Counted from the first letter of the stretch, positions 14,660 through 29,789 are shown. The stretch is DNA of 32,000 nucleotides from Candidatus Nanosynbacter lyticus (GCF_000803625.1 NZ_CP007496.1:60001-92000), one strand, 5' to 3'. Numbers and translations are program-made. The notes: generated by a model not told the origin, from the sequence alone.

Positions 14660-15382
14660 ATGAAACAGCGATTAGACAAGGTTCTGGTCGAGCGCGGGCT
14701 AGCGTCAACACGTTCTCAGGCGGATAATTTTATTCGCTTGGGTTACGTTTATTTGAATAAAAAAATTGCTCAAAAATCAGGGGCAATGGTATCTGATACT
14801 GATACGATAACGCTAAAAAAGATGGAGACTTATGTGTCGCGAGCGGGCTTAAAACTGGCTAGCGTAGCCAAATATTTTAAGCTTAATTTTCAAGATAAAA
14901 CAGTATTAGATATTGGCTCAAGTACTGGTGGTTTTACCGACTATTCACTGCGTCATGGTGCTAGGAAAGTTTTTGCCGTTGACGTTGGTACTGACCAACT
15001 TCATCTAAGCTTGCGGACGAACCCAAAGATTATCCTTCACGAAAAAACTGATATTCGTGATTTTTGCACAGATGAAGTGATCGATGTGATTGTGGGGGAT
15101 GTGTCATTTATATCGCTACGGGAGATTTTGCCACATGTAGCTAAAGAACTAATGAATAAAAATACCATACTTATTGCCATGGTAAAGCCGCAATTTGAAG
15201 CAGGGCGACATCAAACTAATAAAGGCATTATTAAAAACGATAAGGTGCGACGGCAGATCTTAACTGATTTTGAAAATTGGGCAAAAAAGTATTTTGTGAT
15301 TTTAGATAAAAAGGATAGTGAAGTTGCTGGTAGTAAGGGAAATCTTGAGCGATTTTATAAATTGCAATTAGCTAAACATTAA
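14660..15382 (+). CDS. tlyA: TlyA-family rRNA 2'-O-methyltransferase (S4 domain + FtsJ-like methyltransferase)
   Basis: RLDKVLVERGLASTRSQA (S4 domain), YVSRAGLKL, and LDIGSSTGGFTDYSL..GA.KVFAVDVG..QL (SAM-binding motif). Confidence 0.85.
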   Translation: MKQRLDKVLVERGLASTRSQADNFIRLGYVYLNKKIAQKSGAMVSDTDTITLKKMETYVSRAGLKLASVAKYFKLNFQDKTVLDIGSSTGGFTDYSLRHGARKVFAVDVGTDQLHLSLRTNPKIILHEKTDIRDFCTDEVIDVIVGDVSFISLREILPHVAKELMNKNTILIAMVKPQFEAGRHQTNKGIIKNDKVRRQILTDFENWAKKYFVILDKKDSEVAGSKGNLERFYKLQLAKH

Positions 15383-16451
15383 ACCTAAACTCAACAACAT
15401 CATTTGGTTGCATAATGTAGGTTTTGCCTTCAGTGCGAATCTTACCAGCCTCGCGAGCTTTTACTTCTGATCCGGCAGTAATCAAATCATTAAAATCGAC
15501 AATTTGCGCCGCAATGAAGCCTCGTTCAAAGTCTGAATGGATAACTCCAGCAGCTTGTGGCGCCGTCCAGCCCTTATGGATTGTCCAGGCGCGCACTTCT
15601 TTTTCACCGGCAGTCAAGTAGCTTTGTAACCCCAGTGTGTCGTAGGCGGCGTGAATTAGTTTGACTAGTCCAGTTTCTTGAACGCCATAACTTTCCAGAA
15701 GCTCTTTGGCGTCATCTTCTGATAAACCTTTTAATTCTTCTTCTAGCTTTGCACAGACAAAGACGGTTTTTGAGGGGTGGACTAGTTCTTTTAATTTTCC
15801 TTTTAGAGCGGAATTGTTCAATCCTTCTTCATCAACATTGAAAGCGTAAATAACTGGTTTGGCGGTGAGTAGATGCAGGTCAGCAATTGCTTCAAAGTCC
15901 ACACCAGCCAGAGCAGAAATTGGTGTCCCTGACTGTAGATTGTCTGCCAGTGACTGTAAATAGGCTACTTTTTGGCGGGCTTCTGGACTAGCCTTAGCTT
16001 CTTTTTGTAGCTGCGGCAGGCGTTTCTCGATTGTTTGTAAGTCAGCTAGGATTAGCTCGGTATTGATAATGCCGATATCTTTTTTTGGGTCAATTGGCGC
16101 TTCGTCGTGTCGCAAAATCTTTGAATTTTCAAAAGCACGAACAACGTGAATAATGGCGTTGCACTCTCTGATATTGTGAAGAAACTTATTGCCTAGACCT
16201 TCGCCTTTGGAGGCGCCGGCAACTAGTCCGGCAATATCAACGAAAGTAACGGTAGCTGGGATGATTTTTTGGGTATGATAAAGCTCAGCCAGGGCTTGTA
16301 AGCGGCTGTCTGGCACGGGAACAATTCCTGTGTTCGGCTCGATAGTTGCAAACGGATAATTAGCAGCCAAAATATCATTGTTTGTTAAAGCATTAAAAAG
16401 TGTCGATTTGCCGACATTAGGTAGGCCAACGATTCCAATAGATAAACTCAT
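15372..16451 (-). CDS. ychF: Ribosome-binding ATPase YchF
   Basis: [46 protein letters not shown] and a C-terminal TGS-like domain (RAWTI..G..APQAAG.IH.DF..GFI.A). Confidence 0.95.
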
Positions 16452-16457
16452 AACTTT

Positions 16458-16466
16458 ATTATATCA
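16458..16466 (-). promoter_or_regulatory. Extended -10 (TGaTATAAT) for ychF; predicted +1 is the A of the ATG (leaderless)
   Basis: The minus strand reads tgatataat aaagtt ATG. The hexamer is at 16463-16458 and the ATG at 16451-16449. Confidence 0.5.
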
Positions 16467-16479
16467 TCTGCGCAATCTT

Positions 16480-16488
16480 TGATATAAT
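16480..16488 (+). promoter_or_regulatory. Extended -10 (TGaTATAAT) for the 986-aa gene; ATG 7 nt after the hexamer (leaderless)
   Basis: tgatataat tataagc ATG. The hexamer is at 16483-16488 and the ATG at 16496. No SD is present. Confidence 0.5.
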
Positions 16489-16495
16489 TATAAGC

Positions 16496-19456
16496 ATGAG
16501 AAGAAAATACTCATTGCCTAAGGTGGGCATGCTGGCAATAGTAGTAGCTTTAGTTGTTTCGGTAACGGCGTTTTTTGTCTACACATACGCAATTCCTAGT
16601 TCACCAGCTTGGACGATAACCGGTAAATCTTGGGTCACAAAACAATTTAACCCATCTGACACTAATAACTATGGATCTAACTGGACGGCGGCTCCAGGGC
16701 GATTAAAAAATGTAAAGCCGGGAGATACGGTTGACTGGTGGCACAGCCTTTTTGTGAGTGGTGGGACCACGAGTCAAGTTGTAACGGGTGTACAGCAGGA
16801 CGTATTTGATATCACTTCAAATCAACCGATAGATAATGATTTTAGCCTGGGTAGCAGAGGTGCTTGGCATAACGAAGATCCGCAGCAACACGGTATTATT
16901 ACCGACTGGAAGGGGTATGCTTGGAAGCGAATGAACAACCCGGCGGATTATCGAAACACTACAATGGAGACGCTTAACGGTAAAACTCGCCTGGAGGATC
17001 TTCATGGTGAACTTGGAAAAAATAAATTTATGCATACGCGGATTATCAGAAATGAAGACATGGGTAAGCGTATCTGCCAGAGAATCTACTGGAGTAAACA
17101 GAATTCTTCACCGACTGCAGGCTGGGGATATTCACCTTACGCTTGTGTCGAGGTGCCGTATAATTATGATATCGAGCCATCGGTTGGTATTAGTTCTGAT
17201 TATATTGATACAAAAAACGTTACCAGTATTGAGGGTATAAATGCCGGACTGAATAATAAGGGAACAGAGAAGTCCCAGGGGTCTTCGTATGCGTTGGCTC
17301 GGTTTGTAGCTAGAGGCACAGAAGTCTCCAGTATGGCTGGCGTTAATGCTGTTTCGTTGCCAGGTGGAACTGTTCATGACTGGTCCTGCGCGGTTGTGCG
17401 ATTGATTAAGGAAAAGCATAGAGAACTTAATATTGATAACGGAACATGTAAGGAAATTGTTGCTAATGGCGGTAAGAACCAGATTCCTACCGGCCAGACA
17501 TCAATTGCCACAAACGCAACCGACAATTTGAGCGGGGTAAACCTAAATGCGAATGATAACTTATGCTATGTGGCAATGGTTAGTAATTATAATGGCTCGG
17601 CACCGTCTACAGATTTTAGATACGCGATTAAATGTATTAGGACCTCCAATAAGCCAAAAGTTCAGGTTTGGGGTGGTGATGTTAAAACTGACAAGGAGGT
17701 GATTACTAGTAAGACGTCCAACACCATACTTCAAGCAGATAGCCATAACATATTGGATAAGTCGGCTATACGGTCAATGGGTCTTTGGGCTACGGGCTTT
17801 GATGGCGATGGTAATATTCTTGGTGGTACAGTTAATTTTAGTCCTGGTGAATATAAGTATAAGGGAGGAGATGGGACTGATGCTCACTGGTCATTAATCT
17901 GTTCGCAGGATTCTTTTGGAGGTAATGGTAATCAGCGGGCTTATAGGTATAATAAGGTTTCGGGTAAATCTGAACCGACTGATTTACCAAATTGTCATAA
18001 TGATGCAAGTAATTTGACTGATGAATATCAAGCTAGGACGGCGGTGACAGCACAGTGGCAGTTGCCCGGATCGGCAGATCAGATAAGTGATGGCTGGATT
18101 CCTTGTTCTGATATACCAAATAAAGATTTGGTTGGAGATACGCGTATTATTACATATTCTCCTTTTTGTCGCAGGGGTGTTTGGCGCTCTTCGTCTAAAG
18201 CGAAGTGGATTAGTATAAATAGTTTTGGTCGCCATACCCACTCAGACTCAAAGCCGGATCCAAGTGTTACATCTGGTTGTTTAAATGCTGTAGGACCCTC
18301 AATCTTAAACTGCGGAAACACATACGTATTTAGACTAAAAAATGTGAAATTGGACGACTTAAAGAACGCTAAAAAATTGCAATTTAAGTTCTCGGGTGCA
18401 GCAGACAACTTTGTTCGAGCAAAAATTAATGGTCACGAAATGGATGTTAAAGGAAATGAAAATGGCGCCAGACCAGAGGGGACACAGTACGCAGGATGGG
18501 GACTTCCGGGATTTCTTGAGAACTCAGCGTTTACGGCTGATATTAAACCAGGCACTGTTCTGTATAGCAATGGAAATTTTATTGATGTCTATGTAAAATC
18601 TAGCCCGTCGCACGTAGGTCTGTTGATTGAGGATATATCGGTGTCTTATACGATGGATCGGGTCTATCAGAATATGTATGGATCTTGGGCGGAATATGGA
18701 ATTATTTCTGGCGGAAGGGCGGATTCAGCTTCGGGTGCCGGCCTGTCGTCGTCTTTTAATGGCCGCGACAACTTAACAATGCGAGATTATAATAAATTGA
18801 CTTTTGCTAACACGCCGAAGTTTGGCAATTTTAGCGCAACTAGCTCTGTTCCAGATAACTTCACCCTGCCGTCTGTTGGTGGCGTAAAAGGTAGTGTCTC
18901 AGGTAATGTGAATATTAACAGTTTAGCTACGGGTGAATACACTGCCGGTAACATTAATTTAGTTGGCACTAAATTGGATGCAGGTAAGAGTATAGTTATA
19001 AAATCTACTGGTACGGTTAGGATTTCAGGAGATTTGCTGTATAGCGATTCGGGAAATGTTCGTTCATTGCCACAATTGGTAATTTATGCGAAGAATATTG
19101 TGATAGACCCTTCAGTTGGGGAGGTGAATGCTTGGCTAATTACTCCGAAAGATGGATATGTTAGCACTTGTGGCGCTGTATTTAATATGACCAATTGGTT
19201 AAGTAATGTGTCCGAAGCTTTATGTGGAAAGAAGCTAAGAATTAACGGTCCGATTAAGGCTGGCCACTTATTCTTACGCCGAACATATGGAGGAAGGCAC
19301 GCCTCCTCGGCGAAGAATGACCCGAATATGCACCCAGGAACTCCAGCCGAAATTATTAACTTGCGGGCCGATGCTTATCTTTGGTCCTACAACAACTACC
19401 GCAATACCGGTGCAATTAGCACTATGAATGTTCGTGAATTGCCGCCAAGGTATTAA
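16496..19456 (+). CDS. Large membrane-anchored or secreted Cys-paired surface protein of unknown function (986 aa)
   Basis: Basic N-terminus plus a single hydrophobic span (KVGMLAIVVALVVSVTAFFVY). I count 14 Cys, arranged as seven sequence-adjacent pairs. The protein is Trp/Asn/Gly-rich, with a central lectin-like segment and a C-terminal beta-strand-repeat region. It lies immediately upstream of pilM. Confidence 0.75.
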   Translation: MRRKYSLPKVGMLAIVVALVVSVTAFFVYTYAIPSSPAWTITGKSWVTKQFNPSDTNNYGSNWTAAPGRLKNVKPGDTVDWWHSLFVSGGTTSQVVTGVQQDVFDITSNQPIDNDFSLGSRGAWHNEDPQQHGIITDWKGYAWKRMNNPADYRNTTMETLNGKTRLEDLHGELGKNKFMHTRIIRNEDMGKRICQRIYWSKQNSSPTAGWGYSPYACVEVPYNYDIEPSVGISSDYIDTKNVTSIEGINAGLNNKGTEKSQGSSYALARFVARGTEVSSMAGVNAVSLPGGTVHDWSCAVVRLIKEKHRELNIDNGTCKEIVANGGKNQIPTGQTSIATNATDNLSGVNLNANDNLCYVAMVSNYNGSAPSTDFRYAIKCIRTSNKPKVQVWGGDVKTDKEVITSKTSNTILQADSHNILDKSAIRSMGLWATGFDGDGNILGGTVNFSPGEYKYKGGDGTDAHWSLICSQDSFGGNGNQRAYRYNKVSGKSEPTDLPNCHNDASNLTDEYQARTAVTAQWQLPGSADQISDGWIPCSDIPNKDLVGDTRIITYSPFCRRGVWRSSSKAKWISINSFGRHTHSDSKPDPSVTSGCLNAVGPSILNCGNTYVFRLKNVKLDDLKNAKKLQFKFSGAADNFVRAKINGHEMDVKGNENGARPEGTQYAGWGLPGFLENSAFTADIKPGTVLYSNGNFIDVYVKSSPSHVGLLIEDISVSYTMDRVYQNMYGSWAEYGIISGGRADSASGAGLSSSFNGRDNLTMRDYNKLTFANTPKFGNFSATSSVPDNFTLPSVGGVKGSVSGNVNINSLATGEYTAGNINLVGTKLDAGKSIVIKSTGTVRISGDLLYSDSGNVRSLPQLVIYAKNIVIDPSVGEVNAWLITPKDGYVSTCGAVFNMTNWLSNVSEALCGKKLRINGPIKAGHLFLRRTYGGRHASSAKNDPNMHPGTPAEIINLRADAYLWSYNNYRNTGAISTMNVRELPPRY

Positions 19457-19460
19457 AAGT

Positions 19461-19489
19461 TTGCAAATTAAAACGCTAATGTATATAAT
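19461..19489 (+). promoter_or_regulatory. pilM operon promoter (TTGCAA, 17-nt spacer, TATAAT); ATG 11 nt after the -10, no SD
   Basis: TTGCAA at 19461-19466, TATAAT at 19484-19489, ATG at 19501. Confidence 0.55.
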
Positions 19490-19500
19490 TATTATTAGTT

Positions 19501-20547
19501 ATGAAATTAGCAAAAGGGTTGGGCGACTTCTTCGGACTAGACATCGACACAAATGCTGTGCGAGTGGTTCAGTTGTCTCGTGCTGGCACGGGATGGAGTT
19601 TGTCTCATTATGGTTACACGCCAGTTGATTCTAAGATATCAAGTGGTGATTCTCCCGAGGCGCGGCGACGTCTAGGGGAGGCAATTATGACTGCCGTCGG
19701 TCAGGCTGGTATTAAGACGTCTAATGTGGCCGTTGGATTGCCGTCAAATAAAACGTTTTCGACTGTGATTGACGTGCCAAAAGTTTCTGAGCAGGAACTA
19801 AAGGCGATGATGAAATATCAGGTTGACCAGTATATACCGATGCCGTTAGACGAAGCAGAAGTTGACTGGGTAATGTTGGGTGATAGTCTTCATGCTCAGA
19901 ATCAATATGAAATTTTGCTGACAAGTACAGCAAAAACTTACGCAGAAGAAAGGCTAGAGTTGGTTGAGGGGCTTGGCTTTAATGTGATAGCCGAGGAACC
20001 AAACGCTATTGCTATGGCTCGTTCTCTGCTGGTTTCTGATTCTCAGGATGCTCGCTTAATTATTAACGTGGGTGAAAATTCGACAGATTTAGCAGTGGTA
20101 TATAATGGTGCGCCAAGGTTGATTCGTATGATTCCAACTGGACTCTCATCATTGGTCCGCGCAGCTGTTCAGAATTTAAACGTACAAGAAGATCAGGCTC
20201 GTCAGTTTATTCTTAAATTTGGTTTGGCTCCAGATAAATTAGACGGCCAAGTGTTAAGGGCAATTGATTCGACTTTGGATAGTTTTTCCTCAGAGCTGGT
20301 TAAATCTATTAAGTTTTTCCAGACTAGGTATCCTAATGTAGCGGTTTCTGGTATTTTACTGTCTGGTTTTGGCTCGGCTATTCCGCAGATGGATAGTTAT
20401 GTAATGAATAAGGCTGGCATCCAGTCAATTACCGCCGACCCTTGGCAGCGAGTTCAGGTGTCTCAGACTGATCAGCAACAATTGGCGCCGATTGCCTCAG
20501 AATTTGCTATTGCTGTTGGTTTAGCACAGAGGAGTAACATGTCATGA
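19501..20547 (+). CDS. pilM: Type IV pilus assembly protein PilM (actin-like ATPase fold)
   Basis: The GLDIDTNAVRVVQL N-terminus and overall length and pattern are typical of PilM. It is followed by pilN with an ATGA overlap. Confidence 0.85.
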   Translation: MKLAKGLGDFFGLDIDTNAVRVVQLSRAGTGWSLSHYGYTPVDSKISSGDSPEARRRLGEAIMTAVGQAGIKTSNVAVGLPSNKTFSTVIDVPKVSEQELKAMMKYQVDQYIPMPLDEAEVDWVMLGDSLHAQNQYEILLTSTAKTYAEERLELVEGLGFNVIAEEPNAIAMARSLLVSDSQDARLIINVGENSTDLAVVYNGAPRLIRMIPTGLSSLVRAAVQNLNVQEDQARQFILKFGLAPDKLDGQVLRAIDSTLDSFSSELVKSIKFFQTRYPNVAVSGILLSGFGSAIPQMDSYVMNKAGIQSITADPWQRVQVSQTDQQQLAPIASEFAIAVGLAQRSNMS

Positions 20548-21281
20548 TTGAAATAAACCTTATTCCGAATGTTAAGCGAGAGTTGTTGAAAACTCGAGCA
20601 ATGCGCAATCGCGTTATCTCTGTATCGTTTTTGATAGGTGGGGCTTCAATTGCAGCAGTGGTTGTTCTGGCGGTAATTTTAGGTGGACAAATTGCAGCCG
20701 AAGCGGTGCAGAATAGCGGCATTAAAGATCGAAATGATAAGCTTATGTCTGTGGAGGATCTTAATAAGGTTGTAACAATCCAAAATCAGCTTTCAAAGAT
20801 TAACGAGCAGCATGCTGGTAAGAAAATTAATTCGAGGGTGTTTGATGTAGTTTCAGCTGTAAATCCAGTAGCGCCTAATAATGTTAGCTTTTCAAATATA
20901 AAGATTAGTCCAGAGTCTAAGACTATCACCTTAGAAGGTAGCGCTGTTAATGGTTATAGTGCTTTGGAGACCTTAAAGAAGACTATTCTAAGCACTAAAA
21001 TCCGAACAACTGATGGAGATAAAACTTCTGAAGTGGAATTAACCAAAGATATAAAAGATGGCGATACTAGTTTTGGTGAAAACTCAGAAGGTAAAAAAGT
21101 TTTGCAGTTCTCGTTCTCATTTGAGTACACTGAACAATTATTAGCGCCAGCACCAAATGGTACGGTTTCAGTTATAACGCCAACAACTAAAATTGATATG
21201 ACTGATTCACGCCAAGGTATTCCGGATAGTTTGTTTAAGAGTAATTCGGTAAAACAGGAGAAAAATAATGGCAGCCGATAA
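20544..21281 (+). CDS. pilN: Type IV pilus assembly protein PilN-like
   Basis: MIEINLIPN.. N-terminus followed by a TM segment (ISVSFLIGGASIAAVVVLAVIL). Positioned after pilM. Confidence 0.7.
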   Translation: MIEINLIPNVKRELLKTRAMRNRVISVSFLIGGASIAAVVVLAVILGGQIAAEAVQNSGIKDRNDKLMSVEDLNKVVTIQNQLSKINEQHAGKKINSRVFDVVSAVNPVAPNNVSFSNIKISPESKTITLEGSAVNGYSALETLKKTILSTKIRTTDGDKTSEVELTKDIKDGDTSFGENSEGKKVLQFSFSFEYTEQLLAPAPNGTVSVITPTTKIDMTDSRQGIPDSLFKSNSVKQEKNNGSR

Positions 21282-21936
21282 TAAAGGGGTGGCAATTCGC
21301 AAGCGCCAGCAGATTGATTCTTCAAAAAAGACAATGTTTATTTTTGTGGCAAGCGCAGCTTTCTTGGCGGGAATTGCACTGGTTGTCAGTATATTTCTGA
21401 TTCAGCAAATTGTTTTCCATTCAAAGATTATTATTGAGAAGCAGAGTACAATTTCTCGTTTAGATAAGAACTTAAAAACCATTGATGAATTAAAGAAAAA
21501 CATTAGGGTTTTAGACACAAACACAGCGCTTAACTCTATAAAATCAAGTGACGAGAGTAATGCGTTGCAGACTATTCTTGACGCCCTTCCAGATAATCCT
21601 AATGCTGACGCCTTTGGTGCTTCTTTGAAGAATAAGTTTATCGATACGACAACTGGTGTGACAATTCAGAGTCTGTCGGTGTCGCAAGCTGGTTCTGGTG
21701 GCGAGGGTTCTGAGTCTGCTCCGGCTAACACGGTATCGTTTACGATGGAAGTTAGCGGACCAGCTGATAGACTAAAGGAGCTATTAACTAAATTAGAGTC
21801 ATCAATTCGCGTGATTGATCTAAAGGCTTTAGAGATTCAGCGTAATGAAGATAAATTAAGCTTAGTAGTGCGGGGTGTTGCTTATTATCAGCCAGCGCAA
21901 ACAGTACAATTAGAAAATAAGGTGGTAAAGCCATGA
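21268..21936 (+). CDS. pilO: Type IV pilus assembly protein PilO-like
   Basis: Short cytoplasmic N-terminus, a TM segment, a coiled-coil-like stretch, and a C-terminal pattern (FTMEVSGPADRLKELLTKLES..RVIDLKALEI) like the PilO ferredoxin-like domain. Synteny supports the call. Confidence 0.6.
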   Translation: MAADNKGVAIRKRQQIDSSKKTMFIFVASAAFLAGIALVVSIFLIQQIVFHSKIIIEKQSTISRLDKNLKTIDELKKNIRVLDTNTALNSIKSSDESNALQTILDALPDNPNADAFGASLKNKFIDTTTGVTIQSLSVSQAGSGGEGSESAPANTVSFTMEVSGPADRLKELLTKLESSIRVIDLKALEIQRNEDKLSLVVRGVAYYQPAQTVQLENKVVKP

Positions 21937-22163
21937 AGAAAACAGACATAGCTATGGTGATATTGATTGCAGGCGTGGGTGTAGCTATCGGCTATATTGT
22001 CGCCTCTAATATATCATTTTTAAAGGTTCCAAAATCTGGAGCAAAGGTCCAAACTATTAGAGAAATATCATCTGATGTTGAAAAACCAAACCCAGCAATT
22101 TTCAATAAGAATGCGATAAATCCAACTGTTGAGGTGTTTGTGGGTCAAAATGCGGCCAAATAG
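21933..22163 (+). CDS. Small single-TM protein (76 aa) in the position occupied by PilP in diderm loci
   Basis: ATGA overlap with pilO, SD aaggtgg, N-terminal TM segment (IAMVILIAGVGVAIGYIVA). I recognise no family. Confidence 0.45.
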   Translation: MKKTDIAMVILIAGVGVAIGYIVASNISFLKVPKSGAKVQTIREISSDVEKPNPAIFNKNAINPTVEVFVGQNAAK

Positions 22164-22177
22164 AGAAAGGACGTAGG

Positions 22178-23938
22178 ATGGCTTTACTGACGGACGATAT
22201 TCAGGACAAATTGATTGAGCTGCTGATAAACGAAGGACTTATTGAGAAGTCTGTTATTGATGACGCCTTAAAACGTGCTTCTGAGAATAATAAGCCACTG
22301 TTTAGCTTGCTGAGCGAAGAGGGGCTGCTTGATAATGAGCTTTTAGTCCATGGCGTGGCTCAGGTTTCGGGTGTGCCATATGTTAACTTGTCTAATAGTG
22401 TTATTAGTCAGGATATTTTATCTCTGTTGTCTTCTGATGTTGCTGAACGTTTTATGGCGGTGCCTCTAGCAGAAGTTCAAAACCGTCTAGCAGTGGCGAT
22501 GATTGACGCCAATAATGTCCAGGCGGTTGACTATCTGTCGAATCGTATTCAGCGACCAATTAAAGTCTTTATGGCCTCAGAAGAGAGTGTACGTCACGTC
22601 CTTGATCAATATAAAACTGATTTATCATCTGTTAATGTGGCAGCTGAAGCGTCCCAAGAAGAATCTCTGTCGGAAGCTGGCAATATTAAAACTATTGTTC
22701 AGGATTCGCCCATTTCACGGGCATTATCGACTATTTTGGAATATGCTGTAAGAAGCCATGCTTCGGATGTTCATATTGAGCCATTAGAAAAAGCCTTGAA
22801 AATTCGTTGTCGGGTTGATGGTGTTTTGCGCGAGATTATGCAACTACCAAAAAGTATTGAGCCGGCTTTGGTGAGTCGTATTAAAATTCTTTCCAACCTA
22901 AAAATTGACGAACATCGTATGCCACAGGATGGTCAATTTGCGGTTAATGTTGCGGGTAAGGAAGTTGACTTGCGTATTGCTATTTCTCCGGTTGTTTGGG
23001 GTGAACAGGTGGTTGTTCGTTTGTTAGACAAGAGTGGGAGCTCTTTTAATCTGGAAGATATGGGTTATGCTGGGCGCGCTCTACGGACAATTCGCAAGGG
23101 AATTAAGCGTCCTAATGGTATGATTCTGACATCTGGTCCAACTGGCTCTGGTAAGTCCACCAGCTTATATGCGTTAATTAAAGAAATTAAGAATGATACT
23201 GTTAATATTGTGACGCTTGAGGATCCGGTTGAGTATAAGATGGACGGAGTGAACCAAATTCAGGTTAACGCGGAAGTTGGATTAACGTTTGCTTCTGGAC
23301 TTCGCTCGATTTTGCGTCAAGATCCAGACATCGTGATGGTGGGTGAGATCCGCGACAACGAGACAGCCAATCTAGCGATTCAAGCAGCGTTAACGGGGCA
23401 TCTGGTGTTCTCGACGCTGCACACTAATTCTGCCGCCGGCGTGTTGCCGCGATTGCTCGACATGGGGATTGAGCCGTTTCTTATTGCCAGTACAGTCAAT
23501 ACGATTATTGGGCAGCGTCTAGTTAGGCGAGTGGCACGTCGGCGTGATATATATCAATCGTCACCTCTGGAAACACAGGCAATTCGGGAGGCGGTTGGTG
23601 GATTATTGCCTCAGACAAAAGAGCAGGTTGCCCAGTTTGCACAAGATTTGGGCTATGAAAGTCTGCCGCTGGCAACGCAGACCTCATTTGCCTTAGCAAG
23701 GGGTAAGGATACGCCTCAAACTCCGCGCGGTTACTCTGGTCGAGCCGGTCTATATGAAGTGATGGATATTACTGAGGAAATTCAGAATTTAATCGTTAAG
23801 CGTGCTACGTCAGCTGAAATCCAGCGAATGGCGATTCAGCAAGGCATGATTACGATGCGCCAGGATGGATACCTGAAGGCGTTAAACGGAATAACGACAA
23901 TAGAAGAAGTTAATAGAGTAGCGGCGGATACCGCGTAA
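22178..23938 (+). CDS. pilB: Type IV pilus extension ATPase PilB (GspE family)
   Basis: T2SSE N-terminal domain, Walker A (SGPTGSGKST), Asp box and Walker B (DPDIVMVGEIRD), His box (TGHLVFSTLHTN). The protein has a single Cys, so the tetracysteine Zn motif is absent. Confidence 0.95.
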   Translation: MALLTDDIQDKLIELLINEGLIEKSVIDDALKRASENNKPLFSLLSEEGLLDNELLVHGVAQVSGVPYVNLSNSVISQDILSLLSSDVAERFMAVPLAEVQNRLAVAMIDANNVQAVDYLSNRIQRPIKVFMASEESVRHVLDQYKTDLSSVNVAAEASQEESLSEAGNIKTIVQDSPISRALSTILEYAVRSHASDVHIEPLEKALKIRCRVDGVLREIMQLPKSIEPALVSRIKILSNLKIDEHRMPQDGQFAVNVAGKEVDLRIAISPVVWGEQVVVRLLDKSGSSFNLEDMGYAGRALRTIRKGIKRPNGMILTSGPTGSGKSTSLYALIKEIKNDTVNIVTLEDPVEYKMDGVNQIQVNAEVGLTFASGLRSILRQDPDIVMVGEIRDNETANLAIQAALTGHLVFSTLHTNSAAGVLPRLLDMGIEPFLIASTVNTIIGQRLVRRVARRRDIYQSSPLETQAIREAVGGLLPQTKEQVAQFAQDLGYESLPLATQTSFALARGKDTPQTPRGYSGRAGLYEVMDITEEIQNLIVKRATSAEIQRMAIQQGMITMRQDGYLKALNGITTIEEVNRVAADTA

Positions 23939-23950
23939 AAAGGAGGAAAT

Positions 23951-25021
23951 ATGAATAATCAAGAATTGCGAATTGAAATTTTACTAGAAGAGGTTGTTAA
24001 AAAACGCGCTTCTGACCTTCATATTCAAGTTGGGCTTCCGCCGATGCTTAGGATTGATGGCGCATTGGTGCCGGCGTCGGGCACTCAGCCACTTGATGAG
24101 CCAGCGGTTGAGCGACTGGTATTTCAGATACTTGATGAAGATCAGCGACAGATCTTACTGAAAGATAAAGAATTCGACTTTTCGTTTGCGTTTGGTACAC
24201 TGGGTCGATTCCGAGTAAACGCTTTTCATGAGCGCGGCAATTTGGCTGCGGCTCTGCGTCTGATCCCGAACGAGATTAAGTCGGCGTCTGAACTCGGTAT
24301 GCCACCGGTTGTAAATTCATTTGCTGATTTTCCACGCGGTTTAGTGTTAGTGACTGGTCCAACCGGCTCTGGTAAGTCGACGACCTTGGCAGCATTGGTT
24401 GATAAAATCAACTCTGAGCGCTCACAGCATATCATTACAATTGAAGATCCGATTGAGTTTACGCATAAATCAAAGAAGTCGGTGGTGGTCCAGCGTGAAG
24501 TTCACTACGATACTTACTCATTTTCAGCAGCGTTACGATCCAGCTTACGTCAGGATCCAGATGTTGTGCTGATCGGTGAGATGCGTGACCTGGAGACTAT
24601 TTCAGCAGCCATTACTATCGCTGAAACTGGACACTTGGTATTTGCAACTCTACACACCAACTCAGCAGCACAGTCAATTGACCGTATGATTGACGTGTTC
24701 CCGCCGCATCAGCAGCCACAAATTCGGGCTCAGCTATCAAACATTTTGATGGCTATCTGTTCGCAGCGTTTGGTGCCGGCTATCGGGGGTGGTCGTGTAG
24801 TTGCGGCAGAAGTTTTGATTGCCAATCCAGCAGTGCGTAATATTATTCGCGAAGGTAAATCACATCAGCTAGACGCGGTTATTCAGACCGGTGCCGATCA
24901 AGGAATGCAGACGATGGACCGAACGCTGGTCAACCTGGTGCAGAATGGTACGATTACGTACGATAATGCGCGTGAGTTTGCGGTTGACTTGACGGAATTT
25001 GAGAGGCTAATGAGGGGGTAG
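23951..25021 (+). CDS. pilT: Type IV pilus retraction ATPase PilT
   Basis: ASDLHI, GPTGSGKSTT, DPDVVLIGEMRD, TGHLVFATLHTN, and the PilT-specific AVRNIIREGK motif. Confidence 0.95.
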   Translation: MNNQELRIEILLEEVVKKRASDLHIQVGLPPMLRIDGALVPASGTQPLDEPAVERLVFQILDEDQRQILLKDKEFDFSFAFGTLGRFRVNAFHERGNLAAALRLIPNEIKSASELGMPPVVNSFADFPRGLVLVTGPTGSGKSTTLAALVDKINSERSQHIITIEDPIEFTHKSKKSVVVQREVHYDTYSFSAALRSSLRQDPDVVLIGEMRDLETISAAITIAETGHLVFATLHTNSAAQSIDRMIDVFPPHQQPQIRAQLSNILMAICSQRLVPAIGGGRVVAAEVLIANPAVRNIIREGKSHQLDAVIQTGADQGMQTMDRTLVNLVQNGTITYDNAREFAVDLTEFERLMRG

Positions 25022-25024
25022 TAG

Positions 25025-26239
25025 ATGAAGAAGTACAATTACGAAGCCAGAGATAGTGCTAGTAATAAAATTGTTAAATCTGTAGTTCAGGCTGAAAGTG
25101 AAAATGCTGCTGCAAAGTTATTGACGACGCAGGGTTTTGTACCCTTAAAAATTGAACTACAAGATGATAAAACGGGTTTCTTTGCAAAGTTATCTGGTAG
25201 AATCACTACTAAAGATAAAGTGGTGTTCACTCGTCAGCTAGCGACACTTATTGGGGCGGGCTTGCCATTATCTCAGAGTCTTAGGACGGTTCAGGAGCAG
25301 ACTACTAATAAGCGGATGCAAGAAATCGTTCAAGAGATTATCTCTGATGTGGAGGGTGGTAAATCATTGTCTGACTCATTTGCTAAGCACCCGGAGGCTT
25401 TCAATAAGGTGTACGTGGCGCTGGTTGCAGCTGGTGAAACTTCAGGTACAATGGACGAATCTTTGAAAAGGCTAGCCGCTCAGCAGGAAAAAGATGCTGC
25501 CATGATGAGCAAGATCCGTGGTGCTATGATGTATCCATCAATTGTCTTGGCGGTGATTATCTTAGTGGTTGGTTTTATGTTGTTTACAGTGGTGCCACAG
25601 GTTGAGGGACTATATCGCGACTTAAATAAAGGTCTGCCGTTCATAACATTAATCATGATTAATGTGGCTAATTTTTTTATTCACTTTTGGTGGCTCGCAT
25701 TGTTGGTAATGATTATTGGCGGCTATTTTTTGGTACAATACCTAAAAACCGAGCAGGGCATTAGAACTAAAGACACATTTAAGCTTAATGTTCCATTATT
25801 TAAGGGGATGTTCCGAAAAATGTATATGGCGCGGTTTTCCAGAACAGGCCAAGTTCTGCTAAGCACTGGTGTGCCGATGCTTGATATGCTTCGTATTTCG
25901 TCGGATGCAGTCAATAACATGATTATTAGCGAAGGTATTATCCGAGCAGCGGATAAGGTAAAGGGCGGAAAAGCCCTCTCGGCATCTTTGTCGAATGAGG
26001 AATATTTCTTAACGATGGTGCCACAAATGATTAAAATCGGCGAGCAGTCGGGTAAGATTGACGAAATGATGGGGAAAACTGCTCAGGTGTATGAAGACGA
26101 GCTTGATGAAGAGATCCGCGCTTTATCGACCGCTATAGAGCCGGTTCTGATGGTATTTCTAGCATTAGTTGCCGGTACGATGGTTGCTGCAATACTATTC
26201 CCAATCTATAGTTTGGTTGGCAATATAAATATTCACTAG
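25025..26239 (+). CDS. pilC: Type IV pilus platform protein PilC (GspF family)
   Basis: 404 aa with two GspF repeats, TM segments, and FTRQLATLIGAGLPL / FSRTGQVLLSTGVPM repeat motifs. Confidence 0.92.
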   Translation: MKKYNYEARDSASNKIVKSVVQAESENAAAKLLTTQGFVPLKIELQDDKTGFFAKLSGRITTKDKVVFTRQLATLIGAGLPLSQSLRTVQEQTTNKRMQEIVQEIISDVEGGKSLSDSFAKHPEAFNKVYVALVAAGETSGTMDESLKRLAAQQEKDAAMMSKIRGAMMYPSIVLAVIILVVGFMLFTVVPQVEGLYRDLNKGLPFITLIMINVANFFIHFWWLALLVMIIGGYFLVQYLKTEQGIRTKDTFKLNVPLFKGMFRKMYMARFSRTGQVLLSTGVPMLDMLRISSDAVNNMIISEGIIRAADKVKGGKALSASLSNEEYFLTMVPQMIKIGEQSGKIDEMMGKTAQVYEDELDEEIRALSTAIEPVLMVFLALVAGTMVAAILFPIYSLVGNINIH

Positions 26240-26324
26240 ACGACCAGGTGATTTTGGTGTATTATAAGCGTAAGCATTTTTTTGCACAAATATAAGCATA
26301 AGCCATAGAAAGGTGGAAATTTCA

Positions 26325-26804
26325 ATGGTAAATAAAGACAACAAAAAAGGATTTACAATCATCGAGGTAGTTTTAGTCCTGGCTATTGCTGGACTTATCT
26401 TCGCGATGGTATTTATCGCATTACCAGCTTTGCAGCGCAGCCAGCATGACCAGTCGAGAAAGAATGACGCCTCAACAGTTGCTGCAGCTATTACTAACTG
26501 GAATTCTGCCAACCGTAACGGCGGAACCTTCAACGAGGAATCTTTACGCAAATATGTTGATAAACTTGATCAATATGATAAGAATTCAGAGCTGAAGGTG
26601 GTCGCTACCGGTTCATCAATGTCGGTTGCTGGTAATGAGATTAAGGTGATGCGCGGCCGTAAGTGTCCGTCCAGTATGCCGGCTCCATCTGCAGACGATC
26701 CAGCAAACATTACCTTAGAGAATGGCTCCTCGCGCAATGCTGCCGTCGTGGTGTTGTTGGAGAACAATGGATCTCAGAAACAATTGTACTGTCAGGATGT
26801 ATAG
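26325..26804 (+). CDS. pilA: Major type IV pilin (PilA-like)
   Basis: Class III signal peptide MVNKDNKKG|FTIIEVVLVLAIAGLI with Glu at +5. C-terminal Cys pair (RKCPSS..LYCQDV). Strong SD aaaggtgg before the ATG at 26325 (the ORF-track GTG at 26313 is less likely). Has its own terminator. Confidence 0.85.
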   Translation: MVNKDNKKGFTIIEVVLVLAIAGLIFAMVFIALPALQRSQHDQSRKNDASTVAAAITNWNSANRNGGTFNEESLRKYVDKLDQYDKNSELKVVATGSSMSVAGNEIKVMRGRKCPSSMPAPSADDPANITLENGSSRNAAVVVLLENNGSQKQLYCQDV

Positions 26805-26825
26805 ATAAGGAACATTTACATAAGG

Positions 26826-26853
26826 TCAGCCTCTTAAGGGGGCTGATTTTTTT
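26826..26853 (+). terminator. Rho-independent terminator/attenuator after pilA
   Basis: tcagcc(tc) (26826-26833) pairs with (gg)ggctga (26839-26846), followed by T7. Confidence 0.65.
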
Positions 26854-26878
26854 ATGTTTTTTTGTTAACATAAGAAGT

Positions 26879-27760
26879 ATGATGAAATTTATGATAGCAG
26901 GGTTTTTAGGCGCCATATTGGGTAGCTTTGTAGGGGCGCAGGTTTGGCGTTTGCGTGCTCGTCAGTTAGCTGAGGATAAAAAGGCTGGTGAGAAGGTTGA
27001 CCAGAAAGAATTAAAGAGGCTCTCTCCACTAATAAAGAAAGTTTCTAAGGATCGTTCTCGCTGTCTATCTTGCGGCCACGAATTGTCATTTTGTGATCTC
27101 ATACCAGTTTTCAGTTGGGTGATTAGGCTGGGAAAGTGCCGATATTGTAAGAATTTTATTGGTTGGACGGAAATTCTGCTAGAAGTAGCCATGGCTGGAT
27201 TATTTGTCTTGTCTGTAGTATTTTGGCCAGGATCATTGATGGATTTTTGGCAGGTTTTGCTACTGGCTTTGTGGTTAAGCGGTTTAGTTTTACTGGCAAT
27301 TTTATTTGTTTATGATCTCAAATGGCTGCTTCTACCTGATGTCATAAATATTCCGTTTATTATTTTGGGATTTATTTTTTCAATAATAAACTTGGCGCTA
27401 TCTAATGATTTTACAAAGAGCCTGACGTCTCTTTTAGGGTCGGTTGTAATTTTAAGTGGCATTTATTTGCTACTTTATCTTTTCTCAAAATACCGCTATG
27501 GAGAGGAAAAAACTTGGGTTGGTTTTGGTGATGTTAAGCTTGGTTTGGGGTTGGCTTTATTCTTGGGTAATTGGTTGTTGGCTTTTGCGGCTTTATTCGC
27601 AGCTAATTTAATCGGTACGTTGCTAGTCCTTCCTTCAATGCTAAAGGGTAAATTACAGGCAACTTCAAGAATTTGCTTCGGTCCGTTATTGATTGTAGGG
27701 TTTTTATTGGCATGGTTTTTTAGTCAACAAATTTTAGCATGGGGCTTTCTTATCGTCTAA
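26879..27760 (+). CDS. pilD: Prepilin peptidase / N-methyltransferase PilD (A24 family)
   Basis: CLSCGHEL...GKCRYC Zn-binding pairs, catalytic Asp contexts LLLPDV and GFGDVKLG, and multiple TM segments. The start is at ATG 26879, 26882 or 26891. The 5' part of ORF 26663-27760 overlaps pilA and is not coding. Confidence 0.92.
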   Translation: MMKFMIAGFLGAILGSFVGAQVWRLRARQLAEDKKAGEKVDQKELKRLSPLIKKVSKDRSRCLSCGHELSFCDLIPVFSWVIRLGKCRYCKNFIGWTEILLEVAMAGLFVLSVVFWPGSLMDFWQVLLLALWLSGLVLLAILFVYDLKWLLLPDVINIPFIILGFIFSIINLALSNDFTKSLTSLLGSVVILSGIYLLLYLFSKYRYGEEKTWVGFGDVKLGLGLALFLGNWLLAFAALFAANLIGTLLVLPSMLKGKLQATSRICFGPLLIVGFLLAWFFSQQILAWGFLIV

Positions 27761-27774
27761 GTAAAATTTGCTTA

Positions 27775-27783
27775 TGCTATAAT
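27775..27783 (+). promoter_or_regulatory. Extended -10 (TGcTATAAT) for the minor-pilin operon, embedded in the pilD 3' end
   Basis: TG at 27775-27776, TATAAT at 27778-27783, ATG at 27793 (9 nt after the hexamer). Confidence 0.45.
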
Positions 27784-27792
27784 GGAGAAGTG

Positions 27793-28533
27793 ATGGGCAA
27801 TAAACAAAAAGGTTTTACTATAATTGAAGTTATTTTGTTTGTGGCTATTTCTGGCTTGCTCACTTCTATGCTTATGGTGGGTGTTAACATATCAATTAAT
27901 CGTCAGCAATATCGCGACTCAGTTCAGTCTTATGCTGGCTTTTTGCGTAATGAGTACTCAAAAGTCGTTAATGTTGAAAATGATAGATCGAAAAGTGTCT
28001 GTCCAATTGACGGTGCAGACGGTAGGTCGGAGACTGCACGCGGTCAGTCGGATTGTGTGATTGTTGGTCGCTATATTACTACATTTGGTCCACTAGGGTC
28101 AACTGACGGTAATTCCTATAGAGCATATCCTGTTTATGCATACCGATCAGATAAGGGCAGCGCTTGGGTATATCGGCGCGGTGCTGAATCTGACAAATAT
28201 ACCGTGAATTGGCAGGCAAAGACTAGATTTTCTAGCCAGCCTAAAAATAGCGCTTATATATCCATCTTAATGTATCGACATCCAGAAACAGGACAATTAG
28301 ACATCAGGACGGACACTAGTAGATTTGGCGATAATTTAACGGATTTTGTTAATAATAAGAATAGTGCAGGCATAGTACAGTCCGCTGGCGAGCAGCGCCA
28401 ACAGCGGGAAATTTGTATTTATGATGATGGTTGGTTGCCGAATGAGCGGCTTTCTATCTTTTTGCGTTCATATGCAGCCTCTGCTGATGCGGTTATCGTA
28501 GGGAACGCTACCGGAGGGTGTGCTGATGCGTAA
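27793..28533 (+). CDS. Minor (pseudo)pilin 1, prepilin-type N-terminal cleavage/methylation domain
   Basis: MGNKQKG|FTIIEVILFVAISGLL with Glu at +5. 246 aa, 4 Cys. Confidence 0.8.
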   Translation: MGNKQKGFTIIEVILFVAISGLLTSMLMVGVNISINRQQYRDSVQSYAGFLRNEYSKVVNVENDRSKSVCPIDGADGRSETARGQSDCVIVGRYITTFGPLGSTDGNSYRAYPVYAYRSDKGSAWVYRRGAESDKYTVNWQAKTRFSSQPKNSAYISILMYRHPETGQLDIRTDTSRFGDNLTDFVNNKNSAGIVQSAGEQRQQREICIYDDGWLPNERLSIFLRSYAASADAVIVGNATGGCADA

Positions 28534-29107
28534 ATTTAACAGGGGTGATACTATCGTAGAAGTGCTGCTTGGTGTAACGATTTTTAGCATGGTTGCTGTT
28601 ATTACGTTAGAAACTATGAATCGGGGCATGGCTATTTCCCAGTATGCCTTAGAGACGACGTTGGTGCGTCAGCAGGTTGATGCGCAGGCAGAAATGCTAA
28701 GATATGCTCACGACACAAAGAGTGATATTTGGAAAAAGTTGGTTGATAATAACGCCGTAAGTGTTTCCTCGGTTAATGACAATGAGGGTGGCTTGGGTGC
28801 AGAAAGCTGTCCTGACAACTTTTCTAATAAAGAGTTTGCCTTGGCTGCGACACCTTCACTCGGCTCTAAGATCAGTATTTTAAATAATCCAGGCGATTAT
28901 AAACCGGCAGAAACTTATGCGCGAGTTGATAGTGGTACTAAAAAAACATATGGAATAGCGGTTAGGCTTGTTAAGCCGAGTACAGCTATAGGTAGTAGGG
29001 ATAGCAATAAATATGATGCGTACATAAAAGCTTGCTGGATGCCAGTTGGTAGTAAAATGCCAGCAACAATTGGTACGATTGTGAGGTTGTATGACTCGGG
29101 TCGATAA
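28526..29107 (+). CDS. Pilin-like protein 2 with an atypical processing site (G|DTIVE)
   Basis: MRKFNRG DTIVEVLLGVTIFSMVAV: Gly at -1 and Glu at +5 are conserved, but +1 is Asp instead of Phe/Met. SD ggaggg sits 7 nt upstream of the ATG at 28526. Overlaps the previous gene by 8 nt. Confidence 0.55.
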   Translation: MRKFNRGDTIVEVLLGVTIFSMVAVITLETMNRGMAISQYALETTLVRQQVDAQAEMLRYAHDTKSDIWKKLVDNNAVSVSSVNDNEGGLGAESCPDNFSNKEFALAATPSLGSKISILNNPGDYKPAETYARVDSGTKKTYGIAVRLVKPSTAIGSRDSNKYDAYIKACWMPVGSKMPATIGTIVRLYDSGR

Positions 29108-29789
29108 ACAGGGATTCACACTTGTTGAGTTAATGCTTGCGATGGCATTTATCTCGATTCTTCTATTGTCAATTACTATGGTGGGCGTTCAGGCGGGCAG
29201 AATGTATAGCCGGGGTGTGGTGCTGCGTGATATTAATCAGGCAGGGCGAGACATCTCCGATACAATTCGACGAGATTTTTTGCAGGCAAACGCCAATAAG
29301 ATTGATGGTTCTGGTCTGAGAGTGCCGAACAATAGCAGTTGGGCAACTGGTCGGCTCTGTCTGGGGTCTCATTCGTATGTTTGGAACAACCCGAGATATT
29401 TGGACGATCCGAGCCTGCTGGGTGCAAATAGGCTATTTAAGGTTGACGGTAATCCGATAAACTTGGTGCGGGTAGTTGACGCTGACGGTGGCTTGTGTAA
29501 GAAAGATGGGTCCGGTAAGTATCCAGAGATGGTTGATTTAGCAAAATCATCAAACTTACTTAGGTCTATAAGTAGCGGTGATGGCTCGATTGGCATGCAT
29601 GACGTTACATTGGAGAAAATCACATCGGACGATTCCAGGGAAGCCCTTTACAAGTTGACCTTTACTTTAGGGACAAGTAAGATGAGTGAAATTAGAAATT
29701 CTTCTTGTAAAGATCCGAGCGAGACAGATAATAATTTTGATTTCTGTTCTATAAATAAATTTGAAATGATTGTGAGGACAAATGGGTAG
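29091..29789 (+). CDS. Minor pilin 3 (PilW/GspJ-like by N-terminus and size)
   Basis: MTRVDKQG|FTLVELMLAMAFISILLL with Glu at +5. 232 aa. Overlaps its upstream neighbour by 17 nt. Confidence 0.8.
   Translation: MTRVDKQGFTLVELMLAMAFISILLLSITMVGVQAGRMYSRGVVLRDINQAGRDISDTIRRDFLQANANKIDGSGLRVPNNSSWATGRLCLGSHSYVWNNPRYLDDPSLLGANRLFKVDGNPINLVRVVDADGGLCKKDGSGKYPEMVDLAKSSNLLRSISSGDGSIGMHDVTLEKITSDDSREALYKLTFTLGTSKMSEIRNSSCKDPSETDNNFDFCSINKFEMIVRTNG

Follow-up and report, generated by a model that had tools for sequence, protein, structure and literature searches.

In the type IV pili (T4P) of Pseudomonas, Myxococcus and Neisseria, PilY1/PilC is believed to dock through its conserved C-terminal part on the tip complex formed by minor pilins. 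In Streptococcus sanguinis, PilB and PilC are reportedly modular pilins, with adhesive modules grafted on minor pilins. The gene considered here leads a T4P cluster in Candidatus Nanosynbacter lyticus, an oral member of the Saccharibacteria; it is an open reading frame (ORF) of 986 amino acids (aa) with an ATG start, found at 16496..19456 (+) of a stretch of 32,000 nucleotides (nt) (GCF_000803625.1 NZ_CP007496.1:60001-92000), the whole of which is referred to as the window. Further described systems bear on it. In Thermus thermophilus, the pilin ComZ sits at the pilus tip, and the triangular solenoid inserted in it is similar to the ice-binding protein FfIBP (PMC6561018); for cyanobacterial PilX, a 2026 preprint proposes that such solenoids have taken over from PilY1 as the 'tip plug'. 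In N. lyticus TM7x itself, PilX1 and PilX2 carry adhesive modules on minor pilins (PMC11623550).

The cluster downstream of the gene is 'T4P locus one' of TM7x (PMC11623550). T4P-1 is essential and powers twitching, while T4P-2, together with PilX2, promotes binding (PMC11623550, PMC10633639). The same two studies invoke further close-range adhesins, none of them yet identified, and do not count the 986-aa gene among their T4P genes. TM7x_00415, which is PilM, is named in the TM7x transcriptome supplement, and the gene upstream of it is absent from that list; our literature search found no paper describing or mentioning the gene, TM7x_00410. Here, we place its product in a large, undescribed, Saccharibacteria-wide family that is best classed as a variant on the theme of pilus-associated adhesins. 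From its architecture, gene order and predicted fold, we tentatively suggest that it may be a secreted modular adhesin docked on the T4P-1 pilus, likely at the PilX1/minor-pilin tip, and would be an analogue of PilY1/PilC built on a ComZ-like solenoid.

Each of the described systems resembles the 986-aa protein in part. It shares with PilY1/PilC a large size, a non-pilin nature, an ordinary signal peptide, a variable N-terminal part and a conserved C-terminal part, and it is encoded in a pilus gene cluster. Unlike PilY1, whose C-terminal part is a beta-propeller, it has a C-terminal part modelled as a beta-solenoid, and its gene precedes pilM, whereas the PilY1 gene lies within or next to a minor-pilin operon of the fimU-pilVWXY1E type. 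With ComZ and the solenoid-bearing PilX proteins it shares a T4P gene cluster setting, in an organism without PilY1, which is the setting where a solenoid tip plug has been proposed, and ComZ is the best solved-structure match of its conserved C-terminal domain (C-domain). Those proteins, however, are pilins with the solenoid inserted in the pilin fold, whereas here the predicted solenoid is C-terminal, with neither a class III (prepilin) signal nor a flanking pilin fold; ComZ also binds DNA, and nothing in the 986-aa protein points to DNA binding. The modular pilins of S. sanguinis and TM7x likewise tie adhesive modules (of lectin, vWA, jelly-roll or propeller type) to a T4P in a monoderm-type envelope, but they are true pilins, which the 986-aa protein is not, and it has no sequence similarity to PilX1 of the window.

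A large family with a constant C-terminus

The initial annotation regarded the protein as an orphan, a view that database searches overturned. A word-indexed search returned 286 homologues, the best 120 of them all at least 70% identical, and an exhaustive search of 1.84 billion cluster representatives (50%-identity clusters) found 1,494 at E<=1e-3, including 1,230 at E<=1e-10. A third search, with a 34-sequence profile, recovered mostly the window's own clade and no new diversity. At 91% identity, the closest named homologue comes from Candidatus Nanosynbacter sp. TM7-074; it is annotated as "hypothetical protein", and so is every other member for which a name is available. Searches of Pfam, NCBIfam and PDB sequences with the full 986-aa protein gave no match, nor did the C-domain profile against PDB sequences, and neither Pfam nor NCBIfam holds a model for the family core. 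The suggestion that the family is undescribed holds.

What the members share is their C-terminus. In most of the 150 representatives listed from the exhaustive search, the shared part is the last ~260 residues, a few rows being fragments or upstream-only matches. The C-domain of ~290 aa stands at the C-terminus of complete members of roughly 500-1,350 aa, nearly all of which, among those listed, end in ...I.T....ELPPR[F/Y/L/W]-COOH, and most complete members begin with a classical signal peptide bearing AxA-type sites. The window protein matches the whole C-domain hidden Markov model (HMM) with an E-value of 1e-104, the match being split by an insert. It carries the complete family signature, namely an N-terminal signal, KPKVQVWGGDV, YGSWxEYG..ASGAGL..LTFAN, the solenoid, a Cys pair and the ELPPR[FYLW]-COOH tail; the ELPPR tail motif occurs in none of the other ORFs of the window.

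Accessory domains (ricin, CARDB, DUF11 and SurA-N/PPIase) are found in a few members. One member carries a ricin lectin. P0243 (L102 649-4221), on a contig too short to reveal its neighbours, and three other distant members have N-terminal SurA-N/PPIase chaperone-like domains. One NCBI entry, P0310 (469 aa), joins a PilM Pfam domain to the family C-terminus (78% identity, covering 42% of the query), which probably reflects a read-through or a frameshift in the annotation of the short gap.

Domain layout and predicted structure

The protein is rich in glycine (9.8%), serine (9.7%), asparagine (8.5%) and tryptophan (2.3%), in keeping with the Trp/Asn/Gly-rich composition described earlier. A full-length AlphaFold2 (AF2) model built on a 124-row alignment has a mean predicted local distance difference test score (pLDDT) of 79, with values >85 over most of aa 300-930. 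A separate model of the C-domain reaches a predicted template-modelling score of 0.78, with a core pLDDT >90. The layout is as follows.

16496..19456 (+): 986-aa ORF of the unnamed family of secreted modular proteins that spans the Saccharibacteria
16496..16594 (+): basic N-terminus and hydrophobic span, aa 1-33, read from sequence; pLDDT <50
16595..17122 (+): most variable N-terminal region, aa 34-209, partly of low confidence; pLDDT <50 for aa 111-175
17123..17650 (+): beta-sandwich (Ig/CARDB-like) modules, aa 210-385; AF2 strands, pLDDT 75-90
17651..17722 (+): first C-domain segment (KPKVQVWGGDV...TS), aa 386-409; C-domain HMM positions 3-39 match aa 374-409
17723..18631 (+): beta-sandwich insert of ~310 aa, aa 410-712, with three Cys pairs; split HMM match, pLDDT mostly 85-97
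18632..19414 (+): conserved C-domain, aa 713-973, with 'YGSWxEYG..ASGAGL..LTFAN' head, solenoid core and helix 958-971
19415..19453 (+): invariant C-terminal tail, aa 974-986, ...I.T....ELPPR[F/Y/L/W]-COOH; pLDDT <50, disordered in models

The basic N-terminus and single hydrophobic span noted in the initial annotation are plain to see: MRRKYSLPKVG is followed by a hydrophobic span of ~20 residues. By sequence, aa 1-33 could be either a Sec signal peptide, with possible cleavage after YTYA, or a signal anchor. The 14 cysteines form seven sequence-adjacent pairs, as had been counted (194/217, 298/318, 357/380, 469/500, 537/558, 595/606 and 892/910, 11-31 residues apart). Under random placement, a largest within-pair gap of <=31 has a probability of ~3e-4, and the pairs 357/380 and 892/910 are conserved in at least 90% of aligned family sequences.

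The block at aa 210-385 holds the Cys pairs 298/318 and 357/380 as well as C217, whose partner C194 sits just upstream. Its family consensus is 'ACxxVPYxYxLxP...VxNxGxTxS', and CARDB or DUF11 matches are confined to a few family members. In the first C-domain segment, P387, Q390, G393 and D395 are nearly invariant across the family. The insert that follows is borne in the AF2 model on a long two-stranded ribbon (406-419 / 709-729) and is kept in one subfamily, with the pattern 'GLWxTGVD..DxHWxI ... GAVDNxVKFxVNG ... SHTGLLID'. The C-domain resumes after it at YGSWAEYG, aa ~728. The C-terminal region had been described as beta-helix-like, and the models bear this out: the core at aa ~795-935, which includes Cys 892/910, is a run of short strands typical of a beta-solenoid and is followed by a helix. 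Several charged residues of the C-domain are invariant (E733, R929, E952, R957 and D959), while in the tail T976, E981, L982, P984 and R985 are invariant or at least 90% conserved. In the monomer models this tail has no ordered structure, which is what one would expect of a segment that folds on a partner.

Fold comparisons and related families

The Foldseek search with the C-domain returned ComZ (6qvi_B) as its top match (probability 0.98, E 0.08, TMq 0.30, 163 columns, 12% identity), a weak match that may reflect generic solenoid geometry. The matches after ComZ were the ice-binding proteins to which ComZ itself has a likeness (E>2), a lyase, a haemolysin and assorted beta-helices, at E>1. 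The Ice-binding (DUF3494) profile found no match in the Pfam search, so that the structural likeness at E>2 is the sole link to that family. Full-length searches were uninformative on function: against PDB they gave generic multi-beta-sandwich matches at a TM of about 0.1 (integrin-alpha legs, alpha-2-macroglobulin, RbmA, arrestins and an S. mutans adhesin), and against viral structures strings of FN3, DUF11, CenC and tail-protein domains. No enzyme fold emerged from either the C-domain or the full-length structure searches, nor from the profile searches.

A segment of the protein (aa 569-720) had been likened to the carbohydrate-binding PA14/GLEYA beta-sandwiches. It proves to be the C-terminal half of the discrete insert at aa 410-712 inside the conserved C-domain. 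Like PA14/GLEYA domains such as that of Flo5, the insert is a confidently modelled beta-sandwich with a motif style of 'GAxDNxVxxxxNG ... G.N.l.v.v ... GLLI'. Unlike them, it has no Pfam profile match, the PA14 and GLEYA profiles (PF07691 / PF10528) giving none at E<=10 for the full protein and five diverse inserts, and its Foldseek TM scores are very low: with the full-length query, Flo5 PA14 (2xju_A, 2xjp) appears at ranks 39 and 42 with E 2e-3 and a TMt of 0.23-0.24. The likeness is thus unproven. The absence of a PilY1, VWA or known adhesin signature, which the initial annotation had remarked upon, was borne out by Pfam and NCBIfam, with PA14 negative too.

Other identities were considered and rejected. 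The protein is not a type IV pilin, as it has no PF07963/TIGR02532 match and the +5 residue after KVG|MLAIV is V; the real pilins of the window, unlike it, match PF07963/TIGR02532, and BLASTP and phmmer comparisons with the window's pilins, PilN and PilO revealed no similarity. It does not belong to PilY1, since neither Pfam nor NCBIfam finds a PilY1/Neisseria_PilC propeller and the C-domain is modelled as a solenoid. A sortase (LPXTG) substrate was dismissed because the protein ends in ...RELPPRY-COOH with no hydrophobic segment and basic tail, and the same is true family-wide. A phage origin was dropped as well, as a scan of viral contigs gave no relative.

Linkage to pilM

The family gene has a near-constant place in the genome. 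In all 15 species-representative genome loci it lies between ychF(-) and pilM-N-O-B-T, and in six of these the family copy is only 45% identical, while PilM is 82%, PilB 90% and PilT 97% identical. A further 80 environmental loci were recovered through two C-domain peptides from an 8-sequence alignment, 73 of them with enough downstream sequence; pilM directly follows the family gene in 70 of the 73, and is itself followed by pilN-O-B-T-C, in a sample that was ranked by similarity to one member and may over-represent the pilM-linked orthologue group. The stop codon of the family gene is usually a few to ~35 nt from pilM in environmental loci, and ychF(-) stands upstream in 46 of 52 evaluable cases. 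Seven further cluster representatives, checked singly, were all in the region upstream of pilM. The expectation that homologues would neighbour pilM across genomes is upheld in nearly all of these loci.

Variations on this arrangement are seen. Tandem family genes occur in 7 of the 80 loci. Two copies precede pilM in L017 (3624-5897, 6001-7644), L023, L037, L045, L057, L094, L099 and L086, and in L086 ychF lies between the two. Elsewhere, ychF and the family gene are separated by a small ORF of 155-211 aa that is hydrophobic near its N-terminus (L017 2992-3627; L101 4523-5008; L103 4208-4675; L104 4453-5004); it has no counterpart in the window.

Divergence and module replacement

The 986-aa gene is the fastest-evolving gene of the region, and selection on it is purifying overall. 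Compared with the closest locus, L001, it has a nonsynonymous divergence (dN) of 0.052 and a nonsynonymous-to-synonymous ratio (omega) of 0.16, while its neighbours have dN of 0.001-0.013 and omega of 0.005-0.063 for pil genes and 0.11 for ychF. Within the gene, aa 34-209 are 73% identical to L001, and synonymous divergence (dS) reaches 1.8 over aa 39-209 (window 16610-17122) but stays at 0.16-0.3 elsewhere in the gene and among its neighbours, which suggests a recombination tract from a diverged allele. Against the more distant L011, identity rises along the protein from 32% in the N-region and 36% in the Ig region to 49% in the insert and 64% in the C-domain.

Larger changes are found in L100 and L101. 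Their PilM (91-92%), PilB (97.6%) and C-domain (78%) remain close to those of the window, while the N-part is 32-38% identical over partial stretches only and the 310-aa insert is absent. The two alleles are:

L100 1364-3844: allele at the ychF-pilM position, 826 aa, no insert, different N-terminal part
L101 5001-7016: allele at the ychF-pilM position, 671 aa, no insert, different N-terminal part

The locus thus diversifies by module replacement around a constant C-terminal module.

Promoters and the downstream pilus cluster

The surroundings of the gene in the window comprise the following.

15372..16451 (-): ychF, ribosome-binding ATPase, divergent upstream neighbour; Pfam YchF-GTPase_C 1.4e-36 and MMR_HSR1
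16458..16488 (both strands): paired back-to-back extended -10 elements TGATATAAT; consensus match only, read from sequence
19457..19500 (+): spacer between the 986-aa gene and pilM, 44 nt; promoter-like TTGCAA-17-TATAAT at 19461-19489
19501..30924 (+): type IV pilus cluster, by Pfam and NCBIfam matches

The intergenic gap between ychF and the 986-aa gene is 44 nt and contains two symmetrically placed copies of TGATATAAT, each a perfect extended -10. One lies before the 986-aa gene (16480-16488, +, with the ATG 7 nt further) and the other before ychF (16466->16458, -, with the ATG 6 nt further), in agreement with the leaderless-type, back-to-back promoters of the initial annotation. The gap before pilM (ATG 19501), also 44 nt, was searched for a terminator-like hairpin and none was found, as had been stated. 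Co-transcription with pilM is therefore a possibility only, since pilM has its own promoter-like site, TTGCAA-17-TATAAT, ending 11 nt upstream of its ATG. The promoter-like sites of ychF, the 986-aa gene and pilM suggest that leaderless or near-leaderless starts are common in the region.

The cluster runs pilM, a pilN-like gene, a pilO-like gene, an ORF of ~76 aa with one transmembrane (TM) segment, pilB, pilT, pilC, pilA, pilD, three minor pilins (27739-28533, 28520-29107 and 29091-29789) and a PilX1-like gene (29782-30924). As the initial annotation had it, the locus is without a PilY1-type gene: Pfam and NCBIfam find no PilY1/PilC homologue among the cluster genes. The single-TM ORF (MKKTDIAMVILIAGVGVAIGYIVASN...; 21933-22163, +), between pilO and pilB, could encode a part of the pilus machinery that has no name yet. 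In L017, L100, L101, L103 and L104 its place is taken by a gene of 76-88 aa, and by position the ORF matches SEML1_0107, which is essential in Southlakia transposon sequencing. The listed pilD ORF (26663-27760, GTG start) overlaps the 3' end of pilA (26313-26804) by ~140 nt, and its true start is probably further downstream.

A docking model and its alternatives

The features described above fit an exported adhesin: a conserved C-terminus, a swappable N-part and insert, a signal peptide, Cys pairs, lectin-type accessories, tandem copies and adjacency to pil genes. In the mechanism that we tentatively favour, the leading gene of the T4P-1 cluster would encode a disulfide-stabilised modular surface protein exported through Sec. 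Its constant C-terminal end, a putative triangular beta-solenoid like those of ComZ and ice-binding proteins followed by the ELPPR[F/Y] tail, would be the dock on the pilus apparatus, most likely at the minor-pilin tip complex of PilX1 and the three minor pilins. The beta-sandwich modules of the variable N-terminal part would face outward, together with the lectin-like insert where one is present, and bind structures on the host cell surface, and PilT-driven retraction would pull the epibiont onto its host. The variable part lies beside the signal and the constant part at the C-terminus; since an N-terminal anchor would place the variable region nearest to the membrane, this geometry appears to favour cleavage of the signal peptide and attachment through the C-domain.

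A more specific form of this proposal, which we consider unlikely, is that the family represents a ComZ/PilX-type tip solenoid that has become detached and acts in trans. The Sec-secreted protein would then cap T4P-1 by donating its C-terminal strand (...I.T....ELPPRF) to the PilX1/minor-pilin complex, with its cassettes setting the host range.

Several observations weigh against docking at the pilus tip. Besides the weakness of the ComZ match and the possible bias of the environmental sample, the protein falls outside the pilins, as it lacks an N-methylation motif and the N-termini of the family are ordinary and Sec-like. The minor pilins (27739-30924) are encoded at the other end of the cluster, about 8 kb downstream of the 986-aa gene, and pilM has a promoter-like site of its own. 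In the window clade the hydrophobic span is long and could stay uncleaved as a membrane anchor, which would be incompatible with a tip location. One paralogue, L053 4850-7798 (982 aa), is flanked by the ribosomal protein genes rplK and rplA, has no pil gene closer than 7 kb and is the only clearly unlinked family copy seen. In Southlakia epibionticum ML1 (SEML1_0103/0104), ychF ends at 103880 and pilM starts at 103892, 12 nt away, with no gene between them. As the T4P genes of Southlakia are essential (Wang et al. 2023), the family protein is no universal core pilus component.

Some of these points also suit the strongest alternative, which we judge somewhat unlikely: a cell-envelope-anchored adhesin whose C-terminal solenoid and tail bind the cell's own wall or S-layer, in the manner of SLH or CWB-like domains, and which is never on the pilus and acts after retraction. 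Its variable part would bind the host, and its gene, next to those of T4P-1, would be regulated along with them. Wall-anchored surface proteins of monoderms classically combine a constant C-terminal part with variable modules at the N-terminus, and the polarity of conservation and the swapping of modules fit this explanation just as well as pilus docking. It would also accommodate the unlinked paralogue and a Southlakia T4P that works without the gene at this position, and Grossman et al. (PMC11623550) postulate extra cell-surface adhesins that act after twitching. However, there is no SLH, LysM, CWB, LPXTG or PG_binding match and the C-terminus has no sortase signal, adjacency to pilM is kept across very deep divergence and is tighter than mere co-regulation predicts, and the best structural neighbour is a pilus-tip protein.

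It is also conceivable, if improbable, that the protein belongs to the pilus machinery or to envelope passage, for instance as a secretin substitute, a collar or a beta-helix enzyme that cleaves glycans to open the wall of the epibiont or the host. Beta-helices are common in polysaccharide lyases and hydrolases, and a PL6 alginate lyase and a pectin methylesterase are among the weak structure matches of the C-domain, in which the invariant E733, R929, E952, R957 and D959 could form an active site; however, the enzyme matches are at noise level (E>1, prob <=0.08), and Pfam, NCBIfam and PDB sequence searches reveal no catalytic family. First position in an otherwise purely structural pil cluster and the fusion of four distant members to SurA-N/PPIase chaperone domains would suit a machinery role. 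Machinery parts, though, are normally conserved uniformly, whereas no other gene of the region evolves as fast as this one, whose modules are replaced wholesale and which is found duplicated in tandem, and it is absent at this position in Southlakia, where the T4P is essential.

Finally, it is very improbable that this is a secreted or surface protein with no pilus function, held in an insertion-tolerant ychF-pilM gap by the conserved gene order of streamlined genomes. In its favour, the family gene and pilM both have promoter-like elements of their own, the Southlakia gap is empty, the gap elsewhere takes in extra small ORFs or a second copy, and the flanking order efp-tlyA-ychF is equally conserved. 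Against it, the position is kept despite ~35-45% identity in the best-conserved domain and lengths from ~550 to >1,300 aa, which argues for selection on linkage instead of inertia. The distance from stop codon to pilM is usually a few to ~35 nt, and the ComZ-like fold supports a pilus link.

The observations of the initial annotation were largely right, and the idea of a pilus-linked host-contact adhesin is partly supported and sharpened by pilM adjacency, fast evolution, module swaps, ComZ as the best structural match of the C-domain and the lack of an enzyme fold or viral relative; the orphan status is wrong and the PA14 assignment unproven.

Implications for host recognition

The gene bears on the question of how Saccharibacteria, and Patescibacteria at large, recognise host bacteria and stay attached to them, in which type IV pili are known from genetics to matter. 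For TM7x, rhamnose-containing wall glycans have reportedly been implicated. The near-constant place of the family gene before pilM in the oral and environmental loci examined, its evolution as the fastest gene of the region and its module swaps between strains whose pilus motor proteins are 97-99% identical are the signature expected of a host-specificity determinant. The 986-aa gene is a candidate for such a determinant, and a good testable one, since Saccharibacteria are genetically tractable. Even if its product were merely a wall-anchored adhesin, the large, unannotated family of surface proteins to which it belongs deserves a name and a profile model. If docking at the tip is true, the family would offer a third answer to what caps the pilus tip, beside PilY1/PilC propellers and solenoid-bearing pilins; and should the protein prove to be a detached tip solenoid, it would provide a host-range switch akin to a receptor-binding protein for an entire phylum of episymbionts.

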